Source: Chloroflexota bacterium
GTDB taxonomy: Bacteria; Chloroflexota; Dehalococcoidia; Lucifugimonadales; VGZR01
Direction of reading: 5' to 3'
NCBI GenBank assembly: GCA_027625225.1
Contig: JAQBWG010000032.1
Location: 1 to 11,349, forward strand
DNA length: 11,349 nucleotides
The notes under the pieces: generated by a model
What the model saw: only the letters and a program-made list of their open reading frames with translations
Told to the model about the DNA's origin: nothing
The model's database searches: none
Translations under genes and position numbers: made by a program
Shown: in pieces, positions 203-9,828 of the stretch
How the letters are laid out: each line of letters opens with the position of its first letter
Position numbering within the stretch: the first letter of the stretch is position 1

Positions 203-829
203 TTATCGTCCGAATGTAGGAGAGGAGCGTCGGTTGCCTTTGCTTTCAAAGAAGTCCATGTCTATGGCAAAGGCGGCGGCAAGGACGAGCGCCCAGAGCT
301 TGGGGTCGGTGGTGGTGGCTTCGCGCTGAACGTGGAAGGTATCGGCGTCGGTGGCCATTTCACGCAGGACGCCGCTCCATTTTTTGGTGACGCGGGCGAC
401 TTCCCTGTCGTGTTGGCTGACGATGAAGGTGTTGGGCTTCATGAGCGGACCAACGATTTCGGCTATGGGTTTGCCGGAGGGGTCGTGCACGCTGAATTTG
501 CGCTTGAGTATGGCGAAGCGCCGCTGGAGTGAGCCGAGGGGCTGGCCATGTGAGTCGGTGACGTGGAGGTGGGAGAACAGCCAAAAGAAGCCGCGCTTGG
601 CCTGCAACACGGGGGTTTTAGCGTTGTCGATGAAGTGGAAGGTGAGCGGCCGGTGGGTGGCCAGGAATTGGCGGGCGAGCCAGTTGGACTCTTCGTAGGC
701 GTAGAGCACCGGTTCGCCGGAGCCACTGCTGACGGTGTAGCGGTTGGAGGTTTCGAAGCCGGTGAAGACTTCGATGCCTTCTACTTTCTGGCGAACGATG
801 AATTCTTTATGGTCTGCAAGGGTGTCCAT
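203..829 (-). CDS. Phospholipid scramblase (PLSCR, PF03803-like) family protein, 208 aa
   Basis: Translation aligns by eye with human PLSCR1 core motifs: FTGFETSNRY vs LTGFETNNKY, KKWSGVLREMATDADTFHVQ vs KHWTGILREAFTDADNFGIQ, and C-terminal helix AAAFAIDMDFFES vs GACFLIDFMFFES. It lacks the eukaryotic Cys-rich palmitoylation motif and the Pro-rich N-terminus. RBS GGAGGTG lies 5-6 nt before the ATG at 829. Confidence 0.75.
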   Translation of the reverse strand: MDTLADHKEFIVRQKVEGIEVFTGFETSNRYTVSSGSGEPVLYAYEESNWLARQFLATHRPLTFHFIDNAKTPVLQAKRGFFWLFSHLHVTDSHGQPLGSLQRRFAILKRKFSVHDPSGKPIAEIVGPLMKPNTFIVSQHDREVARVTKKWSGVLREMATDADTFHVQREATTTDPKLWALVLAAAFAIDMDFFESKGNRRSSPTFGR

Positions 830-2712: not shown

Positions 2713-3171
2713 CTAGGCAGTAGGAACTGTAAGGTCACCCGACTCGATGAGGTGCTTGACATTGGCAAGCCGTGACTTCTCACGTTTGGAGAAGTCCATC
2801 CGAATCATGGGGTACATGAGCCAGCCCATAATCGGCCTCGAGGTGGCGTGGATGCTCAAAGAGACACTGGTGTCGTCGCCACTGGAGTGAAATGCCCATT
2901 CGGCCTCGCCGCGCATGGCAGATGTAGTGAACTTCACTCCGAACGACTTGTTCGGATCGAGCTGAGTGGTTTCCAAGTCGATTTCGATGGTCGAGCCGGG
3001 CACTTTGAGGACTTCTTTCCATGTGGTACCGACCTTCACTGAGCCGTCGCCCGTATTTGCTATGGATACGACATCGGGGTCAGCCTTGGGAAGCCAAGTC
3101 GCCAAGTCGCTGAGAACAGCAAAGACTTCCTCAGTTGGTTCGTTTATGGTGGCTGTGGCGTTAAAACGCAT
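2713..3171 (-). CDS. SRPBCC superfamily protein (polyketide cyclase/dehydrase-like, Bet v1/START fold), 152 aa
   Basis: N-terminal INEPTEEVFAVLSDLATWLP motif and a long C-terminal helix (GWLMYPMIRMDFSKREKSRLANVKHLIE) are typical of Polyketide_cyc2-type proteins. RBS AAAGGGAG is present. It lies 40 bp downstream of the flotillin gene with no terminator between them, so co-transcription is likely. Confidence 0.65.
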   Translation of the reverse strand: MRFNATATINEPTEEVFAVLSDLATWLPKADPDVVSIANTGDGSVKVGTTWKEVLKVPGSTIEIDLETTQLDPNKSFGVKFTTSAMRGEAEWAFHSSGDDTSVSLSIHATSRPIMGWLMYPMIRMDFSKREKSRLANVKHLIESGDLTVPTA

Positions 3172-3211: not shown

Positions 3212-5140
3212 TTATTCGTCGGTAGATTTACCCTTTTTAGGTTTCCTGGCTCCGTTGCCGCCGTTCTTGTCGGTATTCTCAGGTATGTCAAGCTTAGGCC
3301 CCAGGGTAGTGGCAAGCCAGGCGTTGAACAGGCCACCGCCGGGGCCTCCGTCGCCGCCACCGCTGACCATGACGTCGGGGGTGATTTTAACTTTGCCATC
3401 GGAGACTTCTTCCAACACCTTGAGGATGGCAAGGCGTTCGGGACCGACCACCTTGGCCTGGGCGAGGTAGGCGTCAGCAGTAGCTTCACCGACCTTACGG
3501 ACGGCGTCGGCATCACCGTCGGCGCGGGTTTTGGTGGAGTCGCGTACACCTTCGGCTTCGCGGCGGGCGGACTCGGCACGGTCGGCTGCCATCTCGATGG
3601 ACAGCTTTGCAGCCACGACCTGCACCTGCTGGTCGGCGCGGGCTTTCTGTTCCTGTACGCCGATACGTTCGAGTTCGGCACGGGCTTCTTCTTTGTACTG
3701 AGTCTGCTGCTGGATGGCAATCTCTTTCTTCGTCTGGGTATCGAGCAGCGTCTGGTCAACGGCGATGTAGGCGATGAGGAGGTTTTGGGCCTCGACGAAG
3801 TAGTGGTGGAATTCGTCACGCGCCTTGGAGAGTGCCTGCTGCTGCAACTCGGAGCGTCCCTGCACGAAACCGATAGCCTTTTCCTCTCCCGCACGGTTGC
3901 GGAACGAGGAGTCTACCAGCGGGTGGACGATTTGCTCGATAAGATTTTCAACGGAGCCGAAGCGGGCGATGACGAAGGGTGCGTACTCCGGCCGGATGCG
4001 GATAATCATGCGAACGTCGACGTCGAGGTGGAAGCCGTCCCGGGAGGTTACCCGTAGTTGGGCGAATTTGAAGAACTCGGCGGCTTTTCCTTCCGCGCTG
4101 GGCTCGGGTTCGATAGGCACGGGTGACATGGCATCCATCCGCACCCTGGCGCCAGCCGCCCAGTCAATGGTGACGGCGCTGGTGGGTACGAGATAGGACG
4201 TGTAGGCGATGGGATTGAGGTTGTAGGTACCAGGCGCGACAGGGTCACGAAGGATGCCACGGCGTTCGCGGTCGGTGATGAGCAGCTTTTCGACAGCCTC
4301 ATGGATGGGTTGCCGCAGGTCTTCGGGGGTGTGCGGAATCTCGGGCGGGCCGTCGCTGATGTCAAGTTCCTGGCCGACGTTGGACCGCAGGACGGCGACA
4401 TAGCCGGGAGGAATATCGGTGATGGCGTGCTTTTCGACTTCGAACAACAAGGGGTTGATGTAGTAGTCGCCGGGCTGGATGGTGTCGAGCTGGGGACCAC
4501 GGAAGCCGCCGCTATCGATGAACGCTTGCCCATCCTGGTAAAACTTATGGTGGCGGATGCGGGCGTTAATATCGGTGGGCGCTTCGGGCGGCTTGGGAGC
4601 CACGATGAAGCCGGGGGGCAAGGGAATGCCGTCCATAGCAACGATGACGCCGAGTTTACCCGATTCGATGCTGGTGGCGGCAAACTTTTGCACGCGGAAC
4701 AGCTTGGTGTTGATTCGATAGACACCGGGTCGCAATATTTCGACCTGGGGCCCTTTCTTGCCGCCGTTCTCCAAGAAGGTTTTGCCGTCCTGATAGGAAT
4801 CACAATCCACTAAGTCACCGAGAAGGCGCCTGGTGGGCAGCGGTTCGCCGTCAACCGATTCGATAACGCCCACTTCATCAACACGTATGACCGTAATGGG
4901 CAGGCGTTCAATCTTCCAAAACAACGGGAAGCGCCAGTAGAGGCCGGGCTTCAATGTTTCGGAGAGAATGCCCACTTCCTGGTTGCGGGCGATGATGTGG
5001 CCCTGAGGAAGGGGGGTGGCGAACATTTTGCGGGTGAGAACGCCTACCTGGTCGTCGCGAACGAGCGCAAGGCCCAGGATAAGTATCGCGAGTCCTATGA
5101 CTCCAGCAATAATAGGAAGCACGATTACTAGAGCAATCAT
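3212..5140 (-). CDS. Flotillin-like SPFH/Band-7 protein (YqiK/FloT family) with N-terminal TM anchor, repeated N-terminal modules, Glu/Ala-rich coiled coil and Gly-rich C-tail, 642 aa
   Basis: N-terminal hydrophobic helix (IALVIVLPIIAGVIGLAILILGLALV). SPFH core near aa 350-400. Long EA/Q-rich coiled coil at aa 430-570. C-terminal KVKITPDVMVSGGGDGGPGGG resembles the YqiK Gly-rich tail. RBS GGAGGGG precedes the ATG at 5140. The tandem internal repeats are described in the findings. Confidence 0.8.
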   Translation of the reverse strand: MIALVIVLPIIAGVIGLAILILGLALVRDDQVGVLTRKMFATPLPQGHIIARNQEVGILSETLKPGLYWRFPLFWKIERLPITVIRVDEVGVIESVDGEPLPTRRLLGDLVDCDSYQDGKTFLENGGKKGPQVEILRPGVYRINTKLFRVQKFAATSIESGKLGVIVAMDGIPLPPGFIVAPKPPEAPTDINARIRHHKFYQDGQAFIDSGGFRGPQLDTIQPGDYYINPLLFEVEKHAITDIPPGYVAVLRSNVGQELDISDGPPEIPHTPEDLRQPIHEAVEKLLITDRERRGILRDPVAPGTYNLNPIAYTSYLVPTSAVTIDWAAGARVRMDAMSPVPIEPEPSAEGKAAEFFKFAQLRVTSRDGFHLDVDVRMIIRIRPEYAPFVIARFGSVENLIEQIVHPLVDSSFRNRAGEEKAIGFVQGRSELQQQALSKARDEFHHYFVEAQNLLIAYIAVDQTLLDTQTKKEIAIQQQTQYKEEARAELERIGVQEQKARADQQVQVVAAKLSIEMAADRAESARREAEGVRDSTKTRADGDADAVRKVGEATADAYLAQAKVVGPERLAILKVLEEVSDGKVKITPDVMVSGGGDGGPGGGLFNAWLATTLGPKLDIPENTDKNGGNGARKPKKGKSTDE

Positions 5141-5358: not shown

Positions 5359-6189
5359 CTAGGTTTGCTGAGGCGTCTCCAACCAAAGGCTGTAGGCCTG
5401 ACGGCGGGAGAGTCCGAACTCAGCGGTGAGGGTTTCGGTGGCTTGCTTGGCGGTAAGACGGTTACGACGCAGGTCTACGATGCGCAAGGCGATGGCGTGG
5501 AAATCGGGATCATCGGAGGTGGAGGCAGGATCGGCGGCGGCGATGACGAGGGTGAATTCGCCGCGCGGTTCGGTAAAGTGGGCGACTGCTTGAGAGACGG
5601 TTCCGCGATAAATTTCTTCGTGGAGCTTGGTTAGCTCACGGCACACGGCGATACGTCGCTCACCAAAAGTGTCGTGGATGTCCTGCAACGCGGCTATGAG
5701 ACGTTGCGGGGTTTCGAAAGCGACGAGCGCGCGGGTATCGCGGACGTGTTCGGAGAGCAGGCGGCGGCGGTCGGCGGGTTTGCGGGGCAGGAATCCGGCG
5801 AATACGTAGCCGTCTACCGGGATACCGGAAGCGGCGATGGCGGTGGCGACGGCTGAAGGGCCGGGTATGGGGACGACGGTTGCACCCTGCTCTGCTGCCA
5901 CCGCGACGAGGTCTGCGCCAGGGTCGGATATGCCGGGAGTGCCGGCGTCGGTGACGAGGGCGACGTCGTGATTTTCCAAAGCACTAAGCAGTTCTTCCAG
6001 CTTGGCACGTTTGCTGTGCTCGTGGTAGCTGACCAGACGGGTTTTGATGTCGTAGCGAGCGAGTAGCTTTCGGGTGACGCGGGTATCTTCCGCTGCAATC
6101 AGTTGCACCTGCGACAGGATGCGAAGGGCACGCGCGGAGACATCTTCGAGGTTGCCGATGGGCGTAGCGATGACGTACAGGGTGTGCAT
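5359..6189 (-). CDS. rsmI: 16S rRNA (cytidine1402-2'-O)-methyltransferase RsmI, 276 aa
   Basis: N-terminus LYVIATPIGNLEDVSARALRILSQVQLIAAEDTR is the canonical RsmI / tetrapyrrole-methylase-fold signature, and the length fits. There is no good SD. A TAGAAT -10 (rc of 6196-6201) ends 6 nt before the ATG, which suggests a leaderless mRNA. Confidence 0.85.
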   Translation of the reverse strand: MHTLYVIATPIGNLEDVSARALRILSQVQLIAAEDTRVTRKLLARYDIKTRLVSYHEHSKRAKLEELLSALENHDVALVTDAGTPGISDPGADLVAVAAEQGATVVPIPGPSAVATAIAASGIPVDGYVFAGFLPRKPADRRRLLSEHVRDTRALVAFETPQRLIAALQDIHDTFGERRIAVCRELTKLHEEIYRGTVSQAVAHFTEPRGEFTLVIAAADPASTSDDPDFHAIALRIVDLRRNRLTAKQATETLTAEFGLSRRQAYSLWLETPQQT

Positions 6190-6249: not shown

Positions 6250-6278
6250 TTGACAATACTTCACGACACCTATAATAT
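6250..6278 (+). promoter_or_regulatory. Strong sigma70-like promoter for the ArsR-type gene: -35 TTGACA (6250-6255); -10 TATAAT (6271-6276, 15-bp spacer) or TAATAT (6273-6278, 17-bp spacer)
   Basis: Consensus hexamers in an AT-rich divergent intergenic region. The predicted TSS is about 4-6 nt before the ATG at 6290, giving a leaderless or near-leaderless transcript. Confidence 0.55.
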
Positions 6279-6289
6279 TTTTCTTATAC

Positions 6290-6763
6290 ATGAAAGATAA
6301 CAACACAACAATCAATCAGGAGATGAACGGCGACGAGCTGCTCGCGACGCTGTCGGCGCTGGCAAGCGTGCACAGGCTGCGCATCGTCGCGCTGCTGACG
6401 GCGGGACGCATCCACGTAAGCCAGTTGGCAAGGGAGATGCAGATGAGCCGCCCGCTGGTACACATGCATCTGCAGCGACTTGAGGCTGCGGGGTTGGTGA
6501 AGGGCGAACTGGAGCTGTCCGAGGACGGCAAGGCGATGAAGTACTTCGAGGTGGCTCCCTTCATGTTGTCGGTCAGTCCGGCGAGCATCGTCGAGGCGAT
6601 TCAGACCCTGACGACTGAGTCGGGCGAGACAGGGGACGTAGCCCAGGTGCAACAGCGGGTCGCACAGGAGATGGAGCGGGTGGCGGGCGAGCTTTCACAG
6701 CTTCAGGAGCGGGCGGGCGCGATGAAGCGGATGTTCAAATCCCCGGATTCAAAAAAAGAGTAA
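6290..6763 (+). CDS. ArsR/SmtB-family winged-HTH transcriptional regulator with C-terminal coiled-coil extension, 157 aa (start may instead be the ATG at 6322)
   Basis: LSALASVHRLRIVALLTAGRIHVSQLAREMQMSRPLVHMHLQRLEAAGLV matches the ArsR HTH signature, including the HxHL motif. There are no metal-binding Cys residues. About 60 extra C-terminal residues are heptad-like (AQVQQRVAQEMERVAGELSQLQERAGAMKRMFKS). Confidence 0.7.
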   Translation: MKDNNTTINQEMNGDELLATLSALASVHRLRIVALLTAGRIHVSQLAREMQMSRPLVHMHLQRLEAAGLVKGELELSEDGKAMKYFEVAPFMLSVSPASIVEAIQTLTTESGETGDVAQVQQRVAQEMERVAGELSQLQERAGAMKRMFKSPDSKKE

Positions 6764-6795
6764 CGATGAAGGTAAAGGTTTAGGAGGATACGCAT

Positions 6796-7068
6796 ATGAA
6801 CAACGATTTTCCATGGCCCCTTGCGGTAATGATTATCTGCACCTCGGCAGCCGTGTTTGCCGCTGGCGCGTTCATCATTTACCAGGCGTTCGCGACATGG
6901 CGGGCGAAGATGTCCATCGCACGCGAGGAAGCGTACAAGCGGTTGGCTGAGCAGTCGATACAGGCGCAGCAGCGCATCTCGCAGGAGATGGAGCTGGTGA
7001 TGACCGAGCTTTCGCAGGTGCAGAAGCAGGCGAGCGAGATGGAGCGGCTATTGAAGTCGGTTGAGTAG
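6796..7068 (+). CDS. Small single-pass membrane protein with cytoplasmic coiled coil, paralogous to the C-terminus of the upstream ArsR-type regulator, 90 aa
   Basis: RBS AGGAGG (6783-6788) lies 7 nt before the ATG. The N-terminal TM helix is PWPLAVMIICTSAAVFAAGAFIIYQAF, followed by basic residues (positive-inside rule). The C-terminus QAQQRISQEMELVMTELSQVQKQASEMERLLKS is about 54% identical to the ArsR tail. Confidence 0.65.
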   Translation: MNNDFPWPLAVMIICTSAAVFAAGAFIIYQAFATWRAKMSIAREEAYKRLAEQSIQAQQRISQEMELVMTELSQVQKQASEMERLLKSVE

Positions 7069-7095
7069 ACGGGGCCAAGCCCTTCGCAACAGAGG

Positions 7096-7141
7096 AAACC
7101 CGCGCTCCTTTAGCCTCTTCTAGGATGCGCGGGTTTTTGTT
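7096..7141 (+). terminator. Rho-independent terminator: stem CCCGCGC(TCCT)...(AGGA)tGCGCGGG followed by TTTTTGTT
   Basis: GC-rich inverted repeat at 7099-7105 and 7127-7133, with inner TCCT/AGGA pairing, then a T-run at 7134-7138. It lies 28 nt after the stop of the small membrane protein gene. Confidence 0.7.
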
Positions 7142-7168: not shown

Positions 7169-8023
7169 GTGAAAGAGAGGGCGACTTTGGGACTACACCT
7201 AGACCACGTACTCATAGCGGTGCACGACCTGAACCGGTCGGCGCAGACGTATGCTGAAAAACTGGGGTTCACACTGACGCCGGAAGGGTCGCATCCGGGC
7301 CGGGGTACACATAACCGGCTCATCGTGTTCGGGTCGAACTATCTGGAACTCATCGCGGTGCGGGATTCGTCTGAGGGTGTGTTCCGGCAGTCGATGGTGG
7401 ACATGCTGAAGCATCGCGAAGGGTTGTACATGTTCGCGATGGGGAGCGGCGATGTCGTCCAAGACGCCGAGGCGATACGCGAACGCGGCGTGGAGGTGGG
7501 CGAGCCAGCGTTGGGCAAACGGGACGCGCAGGGCGGCGCCCCGGGCTACACGTGGGAGGCCGCGCCAGTAGCCACCGAAGCGACGCCGGGGAGCGAGACG
7601 TTCGTTATTCAGCACCACGTACCGATCTCCAAGCGATACCCAAAAGAGGCGACACAACATGCTAACGGGGCAACGGCGGTGACGGGGATAGCGCTGGGCG
7701 TGGCAGACGTGCGAAAGGCGGCGGAGGCGTGGGAACGGGTGCTGGGTCAGCCTCCGGTATCGGTGGAGGAACGGGCGGCGGAGAGCGGCCACCGGGCAAG
7801 GTTCCGGCTGGGCGATTTATCGCTCGATCTGGTAGACGGCGCGGATTACGTCGGGATTCCGGTGGCGCTGACGCTTCGAGTGGAACGCCTACAGAAAACG
7901 GAATCGTGGCTACGGGAGCATGGCGTGATGTTCGTGCGGGGACGGGACGAGTCGGAACCGGTTATCGCGGTGCCGCCGCAGGACGCGCACGGGGCGACGC
8001 TGAGGTTTACCGCGGCAGGTTAA
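7169..8023 (+). CDS. VOC-family (glyoxalase/bleomycin-resistance/dioxygenase-like) protein with two tandem glyoxalase-like domains, 284 aa
   Basis: HLDHVLIAVHDLNRSAQTYAEKLGF is a typical VOC/Glyoxalase-like N-terminus, with a second beta-alpha-beta-beta-beta module in the C-terminal half. The GTG start at 7169 is uncertain. An in-frame TTG at 7187 is preceded by GAGAGGG with 5-nt spacing and is an alternative start. Confidence 0.6.
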   Translation: MKERATLGLHLDHVLIAVHDLNRSAQTYAEKLGFTLTPEGSHPGRGTHNRLIVFGSNYLELIAVRDSSEGVFRQSMVDMLKHREGLYMFAMGSGDVVQDAEAIRERGVEVGEPALGKRDAQGGAPGYTWEAAPVATEATPGSETFVIQHHVPISKRYPKEATQHANGATAVTGIALGVADVRKAAEAWERVLGQPPVSVEERAAESGHRARFRLGDLSLDLVDGADYVGIPVALTLRVERLQKTESWLREHGVMFVRGRDESEPVIAVPPQDAHGATLRFTAAG

Positions 8024-8275: not shown

Positions 8276-8725
8276 CTACTTCACGAAGATGACGCCGAAT
8301 TGGTAGTCGTTCATGGAGCCGTCGGCGTTGCCCATGAAGTTTGATGTTATGTATCCGGACGCTCCCTCGAACTGGCCGGTGCCGCCTTCGACCTTCCAGA
8401 TAATGCAGCCGCCGGTCACGTTGGGTTCGACGGTGCCGCCCATAAAGCCTTCGCCGACGGTGCTGAAATTCAGGGTGTGGCCGGGGCCGAAGCTAATGGT
8501 GCCCCATTCGATGAGGGTGGTGTCGGTGAGGAACTTGGCCTCGGAGTCGAAGACGATCTCGTGTCCCCCGATAGCCTCAAATTTACTTTCCAGACCGTTC
8601 GGCCCGGCTTTGGTGGTGATTGTAGCGCTCGGCGCGGTGGAGTGAGCCTCCCACAGTGTCGGGTCGGCGGGGTTTTGGGGGCCGCCTTTGCCGGTGAATA
8701 CCGCGGTATAGATAAGACGTTGCAT
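8276..8725 (-). CDS. Dirigent/allene-oxide-cyclase barrel-like domain protein, 150 aa (re-called; the track ORF 8276..8884 is over-extended)
   Basis: The internal ATG (rc of 8723-8725) is preceded by GGAGGA with 7-nt spacing. The longer ORF would overlap the ADH gene's 3' end by 139 nt. The motif VEGGTGQFEGASGY matches the conserved GG[ST]GxFxxAxG[YQ] of dirigent proteins and the AOC barrel. Confidence 0.5.
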   Translation of the reverse strand: MQRLIYTAVFTGKGGPQNPADPTLWEAHSTAPSATITTKAGPNGLESKFEAIGGHEIVFDSEAKFLTDTTLIEWGTISFGPGHTLNFSTVGEGFMGGTVEPNVTGGCIIWKVEGGTGQFEGASGYITSNFMGNADGSMNDYQFGVIFVK

Positions 8726-8745
8726 GAGATATTCCTCCAGGGTGT

Positions 8746-9828
8746 TTAGAAGGTGAAAACGGTGCGGATGGCCGTACCCGCATTCATGTCGTCGAAGGCC
8801 TCGTTGAACTCTTCGATGGGACGGACTTTCGTTGCCAGTTCGTCGAGCTTGAGCCGGCCATCCTGGTACAGGTCGAGCATCCACGGGAAGTCGGTTTTGG
8901 GGCGGCCTGCACCGTAGAACGTGCCCATGACGGTGCGGTCCCAGAATAGTTTCATGCCGGGAACGGCGATATCCTGTCCCTTGAACGGCACGCCAACCAT
9001 GACGCAGGTGCCACCGGGACGGATGCAGTCGAACGCCTGACGGACGGTCTGGGGAAACCCGATGACCTCGAAGGCGTAATCGGCGCCGCCGTTGGTCAGA
9101 TCCATGACCCGCTTGACCACATCCTCTTTGGAGGCGTCTATGAAGTGGGTCGCACCAACCGACTCGGCCATATCCAGCTTGAACTGCACTTTGTCCACGG
9201 CGATGATTTTGCCCGCGTTGGCGAGGACGGCACCCTGCACCACGTTCATGCCCACGCCGCCGCAGCCGATGATGACGACGGTGCTGCCCGCCTCCACCTT
9301 GGCACGGTTGAGAACGGCGCCGACACCGGTCATGACACCGCAGCCGATGAGACAGGCCTTTTCGAGAGGAATGTCCTCGCGAATCTTCACAAGGTAGGTC
9401 TCAGGGACAACAGTCTCCTCGGCGAAGGTGGCGAGGTCGGCATAGAGTTCGACTCCATCCTGAGAGAAGGGGCGACGGCCGGTTGGCAGCGTGGCCTTGC
9501 CCAACACCCAGAATTCGCAGAGGTTGGCCTTGCCATCGTGGCAGTTGCGGCAGCGTCCGCACTGGGCAGTGAGCGAGAAGATGACGTGATCGCCGACGGC
9601 TACGGTGGAGACGCCGGGGCCGACTTCCTTCACGATGCCGGAGCCTTCGTGGCCCAGGATGTAAGGTACGGTGCCGAAGTCCACGTGACCGCTGATGCGG
9701 TGGTAGTCGCTGTGACAGGCGCCCGCGCCGACGAGCTGGACGCGAACTTCGCCCTGCTCAGGGCCATCAAGGTCAACCTGCTCTATTTTGACGGGAACTC
9801 CCTGTTCTCGAAGTATGGCTGCCCTCAT
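8746..9828 (-). CDS. Zinc-dependent alcohol dehydrogenase, MDR superfamily, class III-like (FrmA/AdhC-like), 360 aa
   Basis: Catalytic-Zn motif GACHSD...GHEGSG. Structural-Zn Cys cluster CGRCRNCHDGKANLC. Rossmann motif GCGGVG. The C-terminus AIRTVFTF resembles the class III ADH C-terminus. RBS AGGAGA lies upstream of the ATG. Confidence 0.85.
   Translation of the reverse strand: MRAAILREQGVPVKIEQVDLDGPEQGEVRVQLVGAGACHSDYHRISGHVDFGTVPYILGHEGSGIVKEVGPGVSTVAVGDHVIFSLTAQCGRCRNCHDGKANLCEFWVLGKATLPTGRRPFSQDGVELYADLATFAEETVVPETYLVKIREDIPLEKACLIGCGVMTGVGAVLNRAKVEAGSTVVIIGCGGVGMNVVQGAVLANAGKIIAVDKVQFKLDMAESVGATHFIDASKEDVVKRVMDLTNGGADYAFEVIGFPQTVRQAFDCIRPGGTCVMVGVPFKGQDIAVPGMKLFWDRTVMGTFYGAGRPKTDFPWMLDLYQDGRLKLDELATKVRPIEEFNEAFDDMNAGTAIRTVFTF

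Follow-up and report, generated by a model that had tools for sequence, protein, structure and literature searches.

A conserved pair of an ArsR-like regulator and a bitopic coiled-coil protein, with a paralogous helix in both proteins in a Chloroflexota lineage

We analyzed an 11,349-nucleotide (nt) stretch of a contig from a Chloroflexota metagenome-assembled genome (JAQBWG010000032.1), here called the window and numbered from its first letter. Our subject is a pair of adjacent genes. The first encodes a winged helix-turn-helix (wHTH) protein, the regulator, and the second a small protein that spans the membrane once, its partner. The regulator ends in a helix that is paralogous to the cytoplasmic coiled-coil helix of the partner. 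The features listed below come from the open reading frames (ORFs), from AlphaFold2 (AF2) models with their predicted local distance difference test (pLDDT) values, and from sequence comparison.

Positions 6250 to 6255, forward strand: -35 element TTGACA, from a promoter scan and the geometry of related loci.
Positions 6271 to 6288, no strand assigned: putative operator, an 18-bp palindrome (TATAAT-ATTTTT-CTTATA) that overlaps the -10 element and ends 1 nt before the ATG.
Positions 6290 to 6763, forward strand: regulator gene, an ORF of 157 amino acids (aa; accession number MDA1188645.1), with a leaderless or near-leaderless start that lacks a Shine-Dalgarno sequence.
Positions 6329 to 6601, forward strand: wHTH core of the regulator, residues 14 to 104 (α1 to α4, β wing, α5; AF2 pLDDT >90, and family profile against the PDB).
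Positions 6602 to 6628, forward strand: flexible linker TTESGETGD, residues 105 to 113 (AF2 pLDDT about 64, without secondary structure).
Positions 6629 to 6736, forward strand: C-terminal tail helix of the regulator, residues 114 to 149 in the AF2 model; residues 116 to 151 are homologous to the distal helix of the partner.
Positions 6782 to 6787, forward strand: Shine-Dalgarno sequence AGGAGG of the partner gene, 8 nt before its ATG.
Positions 6796 to 7068, forward strand: partner gene, an ORF of 90 aa (MDA1188646.1) encoding a bitopic membrane protein.
Positions 6817 to 6891, forward strand: predicted transmembrane segment of the partner, at about residues 8 to 32, with the hydrophobic stretch PLAVMIICTSAAVFAAGAFIIYQAF followed by WRAKMSIAR.
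Positions 6883 to 6951, forward strand: juxtamembrane motif (W)Q..ATWRA(R/K)MS.AREEAY(R/K).LAE of the partner, the most conserved part of its family in the alignment.
Positions 6952 to 7059, forward strand: distal cytoplasmic coiled-coil helix of the partner, residues 53 to 88, the source or a paralogue of the regulator tail.
Positions 7095 to 7141, forward strand: intrinsic terminator from RNA folding, with a GC-rich 14-bp stem, a 12-nt loop and then UUUUUGUU as the U-run.

The window sequence has a spacer of 32 nt between the two genes, and the downstream gene has its own AGGAGG at 6782 to 6787; a preliminary description of this DNA had reported both. Between the in-frame stop codon at 6251 to 6253 and position 6290 we found no alternative start for the regulator. 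Because there is no room for a Shine-Dalgarno sequence before the start codon, the transcript should be leaderless or nearly so.

The regulator belongs to the ArsR family of wHTH proteins, as first described. Pfam HTH_5 (ArsR, PF01022) matches residues 29 to 71 with 36.6 bits against a cutoff of 22, and the AF2 model (mean pLDDT, 88; predicted template modeling score [pTM], 0.63) has the α1-to-α5 and β-wing topology of the ArsR/SmtB fold, with helices at residues 14 to 24, 27 to 36, 43 to 50, 54 to 66, and 97 to 104 and strands at 70 to 76 and 82 to 88. When a profile of the family was compared with the PDB, the top match was 2p4w, the structure of the heat-shock regulator Phr from Pyrococcus furiosus (E = 4.5e-12), followed by other ArsR/SmtB proteins. 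Foldseek with the regulator model likewise gave 2p4w (E = 1.7e-6) and placed the nearest folds among ArsR/SmtB proteins; after Phr, the nearest solved proteins by sequence profile or Foldseek are HlyU, NolR, CzrA, and SrnR. The regulator sequence contains no cysteine at all, in line with the earlier remark that metal-sensing cysteines are lacking, and its α5 segment (PASIVEAIQTL) holds no cluster of His, Asp, or Glu metal ligands. The ArsR/SmtB metalloregulator model NF033788 (HTH_metalloreg) scores 45.4 bits, under its cutoff of 55, and with no cysteine and no α5 ligand cluster we rejected membership in that group. Taken together, the sequence, the Pfam and NCBIfam searches, and the AF2 model give a 105-aa wHTH core that lacks cysteines, a metal site, and a ligand domain, which makes input of the signal through a protein partner the most economical assumption. 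Beyond the core, the preliminary description had noted an extra heptad-like segment of about 60 aa. The extra segment exists, but it consists of a 9-aa linker and one helix of about 36 aa (residues 114 to 149).

The partner has one hydrophobic segment, which agrees with its initial assignment as a single-pass membrane protein, and AF2 models residues 7 to 89 as one continuous helix (pLDDT 96). By the positive-inside rule its N terminus would lie outside and its C terminus in the cytoplasm, with an external portion of about 7 or fewer residues and a cytoplasmic helix of about 55 aa. So short an external portion (about 7 residues) would leave the membrane itself or the cell interior as the only places where a signal could be perceived. 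An exhaustive HMMER search collected 130 representative clusters of the partner family at an E-value of ≤1e-3. In their alignment a C-terminal motif, E.ER.LKEVE, is strongly conserved, like the juxtamembrane motif. There is no Pfam model for this family, and the window partner has no Pfam match at an E-value of ≤0.01 and no NCBIfam family above cutoff; sources annotate the family only as "hypothetical" or with spurious names. A word-index protein search for relatives of the 90-aa partner brought up nothing but the query, a false negative against the 130 clusters found by HMMER. Relatives of the partner do share 9-residue words, such as FATWRAKMS (in partner ORFs translated from loci L001 and L005), and short ORFs may be underrepresented in the word index that missed the family. 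In one representative of 298 aa (P0167), five separate stretches align with the 90-aa partner; this protein may consist of tandem copies of the partner or be a fusion of it.

The two proteins share their C-terminal helix. Residues 119 to 151 of the regulator align without gaps to residues 56 to 88 of the partner, with 19 of 33 positions identical (BLASTP, E = 4e-10), which bears out an earlier estimate of about 19 of 35, and 75 of the 99 nucleotides in the aligned stretch are identical as well. Nucleotide stretches common to both genes had also been reported, and the 13-mer CAGGAGATGGAGC does occur in both the regulator tail and the partner gene. Recent gene conversion between tail and partner is unsupported, as a longest identical run of 13 nt is about what 76% identity predicts. 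Leaving out the window partner, we assembled 51 partner proteins from other genomes into a profile. The regulator tail scored 22.8 bits against it, in register with profile positions 60 to 94, and the window partner itself scored 75.9 bits; the profile similarity of the two C termini on which the preliminary description had let its proposal stand or fall is thus present. The heptad core of the tail (V124, M128, V131, L135, L138, A142, M145, and F149) is in register with the a/d core of the partner distal helix (I61, M65, V68, L72, V75, A79, M82, and L86, followed by V89), and every one of these paired positions is hydrophobic in both helices.

Could this similarity be a chance or convergent resemblance of unrelated coiled coils? 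Coiled coils share composition and heptad periodicity, and the segment is short (33 to 35 aa). However, none of 4,000 shuffled tails reached 22.8 bits (the best scores were 9.1 bits for 2,000 full shuffles and 12.8 bits for 2,000 heptad-preserving shuffles), and the reversed tail scored 8.1 bits. Moreover, 76% of the nucleotides are identical, 13 of them in one unbroken run, the same profile columns are matched in register in two lineages (see below), and a six-frame scan of the whole window with the partner profile found the partner and the tail and no other ORF. We consider a chance resemblance scarcely credible. These comparisons argue that the similarity exceeds coiled-coil composition and that the paralogy of the two C-terminal helices is real.

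Among the matches listed, a partner-like tail is present only in the window organism and in one SAR202 relative (P0002, 165 aa). Other long regulator tails are of low complexity and do not match the partner profile, and the metagenome scan yielded no further tail-bearing regulator among the matches listed. We rejected the long regulator matches at L005, L014, L133, and L161 as tails, since tblastn had run on into the downstream partner gene. In the SAR202 relative (L001) the gene order is the same, with rsmI, the regulator, a 90-aa gene, and a glyoxalase-like gene, and this synteny is kept even though the regulators of the window and the SAR202 relative are only about 60 to 61% identical overall. 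Both pairs are uncoupled, with spacers of 32 and 29 nt and a Shine-Dalgarno sequence for each partner gene, and the two partner proteins are identical at 64 of 90 positions. Two other, independent assemblies from close strains have the same tail arrangement and differ from the window by A118V in the tail and by one synonymous change in the partner; the arrangement is therefore not an assembly artifact. The SAR202 tail scores 13.8 bits against the partner profile and matches the same columns as the window tail; again, none of 4,000 shuffles reached its score. The window tail is nearest to its own partner (18 of 35 identical residues). The simplest history would be a single event of duplication and fusion in a common ancestor of the two lineages, after which the tail diverged fast under a constraint that preserved only the amphipathic heptad core.

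The pair itself is much more widespread than the tail. The wHTH core has 1,997 homologues in the protein collection, the best of them 60 to 70% identical over the core, and nearly all are 105 to 130 aa long and cover about 65 to 75% of the query, i.e., they lack the tail. Tail-less regulators of this kind (105 to 140 aa) occur commonly among Actinomycetota and Chloroflexota. When one genome was scanned for each GTDB species, 534 regulator relatives came up, and a metagenome scan gave at least 390 more. The hosts are mainly Streptomyces and other Actinomycetota and also include Dehalococcoidia, Thermomicrobiales, and Chloroflexia. We fetched 162 related loci, 155 of which had enough downstream sequence to score the partner, and a partner homologue follows the regulator in 154 of these 155. 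Synteny of the pair in relatives, which the preliminary description had proposed to check, is thus conserved, and much more strongly than it had expected. The sole locus scored as lacking a partner, L096, contains at 1560 to 1720 a partner gene that an internal deletion or a frameshift has disrupted, so that the N-terminal transmembrane part and the C-terminal part (...LKAVE) lie in different frames; an MMPL-like gene then follows. In 40 of 51 cleanly parsed tail-less loci, the regulator and partner genes overlap by 4 nt (ATGA or GTGA), which indicates stoichiometric cotranslation. The wHTH core encoded in the window is about 55 to 70% identical to the family members, and a partner gene lies immediately downstream on the same strand. 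On the evidence of its two proteins, then, the locus belongs to a conserved but unnamed family of operons that combine a short ArsR-like regulator with a bitopic coiled-coil protein. It departs from the family by its tail, by its variant operator arms, and by its uncoupled genes, which have a 32-nt spacer with an AGGAGG of its own instead of the 4-nt overlap of start and stop codons. A literature search for an ArsR protein paired with a small membrane protein, a coiled-coil protein, or MMPL found no relevant paper.

In 59 of 131 loci (about 45%), the next gene downstream of the pair, on the same strand and at a median gap of 126 nt, encodes an MMPL transporter (PF03176, about 720 to 760 aa), in both Streptomyces and Chloroflexi (for example, L007, 3828 to 6035; L009, 3595 to 5880; L016, 3938 to 6091; and 56 other loci). 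Where it is present, the transporter may be the main regulated target of the module. About 10 loci carry a PF13796 "Putative sensor" membrane protein downstream in place of MMPL (e.g., L080, 4156 to 5394, and L131, 2111 to 2938). The window has neither an MMPL nor a PF13796 gene after the pair, and a Glyoxalase_3 gene follows the terminator. The MMPL linkage speaks for a pair that is coregulated but does not interact. The partner would then be the effector of the operon, acting for example in membrane stress or as an accessory to the MMPL exporter, and the tail would be a tolerated by-product of duplication and fusion; the rapid divergence of the tail points the same way. Yet both lineages, with an overall identity of only about 60%, and the strains as well have kept the tail as an intact amphipathic helix. 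Furthermore, the partner accompanies the regulator in about 100% of the loci and MMPL in only about 45%, a 4-nt overlap is typical of interacting pairs, and the regulator has no other obvious sensing module. We therefore regard a pair without interaction as distinctly improbable.

The regulatory region became visible through comparison between loci. An inverted-repeat search of the window promoter found nothing, the arms being only 5 to 6 nt long, and the operator was seen only when the upstream regions of related loci were aligned. They share a palindrome with the consensus TGT[A/C]A[G/A]-N6-[C/T]T[T/G]ACA. Its strict form, TGTnAn-N6-nTnACA, occurs in 119 of 152 related loci and in none of 3,371 control windows of the same loci. 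TTGAC[AG] stands exactly 15 nt before the palindrome in 52 of the 119, and an in-frame start codon follows 1 nt after it in 57 loci. The window has the same geometry: TTGACA, 15 nt, the palindrome at 6271 to 6288, a C, and the ATG at 6290. Its operator keeps five of six arm positions and fails the strict pattern through the symmetric replacement of G2 and C17. The regulator presumably binds this putative operator and represses its own operon. The promoter had at first been read as a consensus TTGACA/TATAAT pair. The -35 element TTGACA stands, but the TATAAT, 15 nt after it, is the left operator arm, and the likely -10 element in the promoter scan is TAATAT (6273 to 6278), with a 17-nt spacer to TTGACA. 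The AT-rich island said to surround the promoter is real, with a GC content of 0.39 against about 0.6 elsewhere. The changes in the operator arms (TGTAAG to TATAAT and CTTACA to CTTATA) keep the palindrome and create a perfect TATAAT. The recognition helix of the window regulator has no obvious change to match the altered operator, and the SAR202 orthologue keeps TGT/ACA.

At the other end of the operon, the terminator folds with -31.7 kcal/mol (z = -4.3), and none of 200 shuffled sequences was as stable. The claim of a clean terminator is right in that the terminator is real; its loop, however, is 12 nt long, and owing to this long loop a pattern scanner made no terminator call at 7095 to 7141. 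With a promoter before and a terminator after both genes, the view of the pair as a self-contained module is supported.

How does the pair compare with known systems? Small bitopic proteins whose cytoplasmic helical domain controls a transcription regulator by contact are familiar from anti-sigma factors and from the PspB/PspC arm of the phage-shock system. The target in the window is a wHTH repressor and not a sigma factor or PspA/PspF, so the likeness is one of analogy; the PspC model (TIGR02978) gives the partner 16.2 bits against a cutoff of 104 (E = 0.007), and there is no homology. A closer precedent is SdpR/SdpI of Bacillus subtilis, in which an ArsR-family autorepressor is sequestered by a cotranscribed membrane protein, with derepression upon capture at the cytoplasmic face (PMC2910880). 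There too, the gene of the ArsR-fold autorepressor comes first and that of the membrane protein second. However, SdpI is a polytopic immunity protein (about six transmembrane segments) that senses an external toxin, whereas the window partner has one transmembrane segment and a long cytoplasmic coiled coil, and SdpR and SdpI, unlike the window proteins, share no domain. We rejected membership of the regulator in the SdpR family (NF033789; 28.7 bits against a cutoff of 100) and an SdpI-family identity of the partner, which has a single hydrophobic segment and whose faint Pfam matches at an E-value of ≤1 include no SdpI family. In Streptomyces griseus, the ArsR/SmtB-family DNA-binding protein SrnR functions only in a 1:1 complex with SrnQ, a small co-encoded protein that falls into no known family and has been characterized as a nickel-binding corepressor, not as a membrane protein (PMC7055735). 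SrnR and SrnQ have no shared helix, in which they differ from the window pair, and membership was rejected, as SrnR (7p6f) is distant (E = 6e-4 against the family profile). An assignment to antiphage defense was rejected, since PADLOC matched the regulator to nothing more specific than generic wHTH models (Csa3/CasR C-terminal domains) and the partner to no model. The uncharacterized, widespread family appears to use a regulatory logic of a known kind, and a regulator that carries the helix of its partner is a new variant within it.

In Phr, the closest solved relative, an ArsR-type wHTH likewise precedes long C-terminal helices, to which the structure paper reportedly assigns dimerization. 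Phr differs in being archaeal, 202 aa long, and without a membrane partner. The window tail derives from the neighboring gene and not from a Phr-like C-terminal domain; the helices fail to superpose (root mean square deviation of about 20 Å over 167 columns), and we rejected membership in the Phr family (NF053602), where the regulator scored 32.2 bits against a cutoff of 320 with the wHTH alone aligned. Still, no protein matches the regulator better in sequence and structure than Phr, and the tail might serve solely for homo-oligomerization, as an extra dimer or tetramer coiled coil like that of Phr or of TlpA, a coiled-coil autorepressor. It would then raise operator affinity or bridge sites, and the similarity to the partner would reflect the origin by duplication. 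Conservation of the hydrophobic heptad core in both tail lineages with rapid divergence elsewhere is expected if self-association alone matters, the SAR202 tail has favorable g/e pairs for a homodimer, and several loci contain additional half-site-like sequences upstream of the palindrome. On the other hand, the ArsR fold already dimerizes via α1 and α5, and hundreds of relatives do without a tail. In a parallel homodimer of the window tail, R141 and K146 would repel each other in g-e' contact, which turns into an R-E attraction with the partner. Finally, the tail has the same a/d core as a coexpressed membrane helix, and mixing would be hard to prevent. A role in self-association alone is a serious contender, if on the unlikely side.

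Tentatively, and a little short of an even chance, we favor a model in which the membrane partner controls a ligand-less autorepressor by direct contact and the duplicated helix lets the repressor join the partner bundle and be held at the membrane. An ArsR-fold wHTH protein without a metal site would repress its own leaderless transcript at the 18-bp palindrome over the -10 element and the transcription start. The coexpressed bitopic protein would be its signaling partner, and direct binding at the membrane would set repressor activity, as with SdpI and SdpR. In the SAR202-type Chloroflexota lineage a copy of the distal helix of the partner would have been fused to the C terminus of the regulator via a flexible linker. 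This tail would most likely coassemble with partner helices into a mixed bundle, for example of two tails from a regulator dimer and two partner helices, and through the bundle the repressor would be drawn to the membrane more strongly or in a hard-wired manner. The types of residues at a and d suggest that such a 2:2 assembly would fit, by a rule reportedly given by Harbury et al. in 1993, under which β-branched residues at d with Leu or Met at a point to a bundle of higher order than a dimer.

What speaks for direct contact is that the two genes of the family are paired almost without exception and translationally coupled, that the regulator lacks a sensing module, that the a/d cores of the two helices match, that SdpR/SdpI sets a precedent, and that there is a partial fusion of the Rosetta stone kind: the helix of the partner has been copied onto the regulator while the intact partner gene is retained, which counts as Rosetta-stone-type evidence for contact between the two proteins. 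From these points we infer the contact, the hetero-helical bundle, and the direction of control. Membrane tethering of the repressor by the shared helix, as proposed in the preliminary description, is plausible.

Several observations weigh against this model. More than 99% of the family members function without a tail, and because almost all keep the pairing without a shared helix, the helix cannot be the general basis of coupling. The tails of the window and the SAR202 relative are identical at only 11 of 35 positions, compared with 24 of 35 for the partner helices and 54 of 66 for the wHTH cores; judged by these alignments, the tail is a lineage-specific addition that evolves much faster than the wHTH core or the partner helix. 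The SAR202 tail matches its own partner at 9 of 35 positions and is no closer to it than to unrelated partners (up to 14 of 35), which weakens the idea that the tail must match the partner. For the window tail, charges at g and e give hetero-pairing only a marginal advantage; for the SAR202 orthologue they give none. In the window operator, position 2 of each arm departs from the consensus (G2 to A and C17 to T). In addition, the partner could merely be a coregulated effector or an accessory of the MMPL transporter found at about 45% of the loci.

The tail could also act in cis, as a mimic of the partner: if the C-terminal helix of the partner docked on the wHTH dimer in the ancestral system, the fused copy would fill that site within its own molecule, compete with the membrane partner, and so reset the switch as an autoinhibitory or decoy helix. 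The copied segment covers the region equivalent to the conserved C-terminal motif of the partner (E.ER.LKEV), and the flexible linker of 9 aa would permit the helix to fold back. AF2, however, gives no sign of packing between tail and core and models a free long helix (pTM 0.63). The terminal motif is poorly preserved in the tails (AMKRMFKSP and ELERLTESM), and docking of the partner helix on the wHTH is an assumption for every family member. We think a cis-acting mimic very doubtful.

Direct contact, if extended to the whole family, would amount to an unrecognized and widespread form of one-step signaling, in which a bitopic coiled-coil protein without an ectodomain senses the state of the membrane or envelope, possibly in connection with MMPL, and captures or releases a ligand-less ArsR-fold repressor, with the SAR202 variant as a natural Rosetta stone for contact in a mixed bundle. 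We offer this extension as a speculation that is somewhat unlikely to hold as a whole. If the model is true, several hundred species, many of them Streptomyces, carry an unstudied regulator-sensor pair that is linked in nearly 100% of cases, and the tail-bearing pair is a compact example of a regulatory interaction hard-wired by copying the oligomerization helix of the partner. The family pair has a sharply defined operator and a frequent link with MMPL lipid/envelope exporters, and the tail-bearing SAR202 version provides a concrete hypothesis for the contact site between regulator and partner. In practical terms, the family supplies a small orthogonal repressor/operator pair, and a partner family so far annotated as "hypothetical protein," without a Pfam model, gains a functional context.

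The pair has the following neighbors in the window.

Positions 203 to 829, reverse strand: scramblase gene, upstream of the pair.
Positions 2713 to 3171, reverse strand: gene for an SRPBCC/polyketide_cyc2 protein, upstream of the pair.
Positions 3212 to 5140, reverse strand: gene for an SPFH/Band-7 protein of 642 aa, upstream of the pair.
Positions 5359 to 6189, reverse strand: rsmI (TP_methylase), divergent and upstream of the pair.
Positions 7169 to 8023, forward strand: Glyoxalase_3 gene, downstream of the terminator.

Farther downstream, an ORF of 202 aa on the reverse strand (8276 to 8884) has no Pfam match at an E-value of ≤1e-5 and overlaps the start of an alcohol dehydrogenase ORF (8746 to 9828); it may not be a real gene. 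The upstream neighbors also include a gene for a solute-binding protein. Between 203 and 5140 on the reverse strand, these neighbors are rich in membrane- and lipid-related genes, which could be coincidental or tied to a membrane-state function of the pair.

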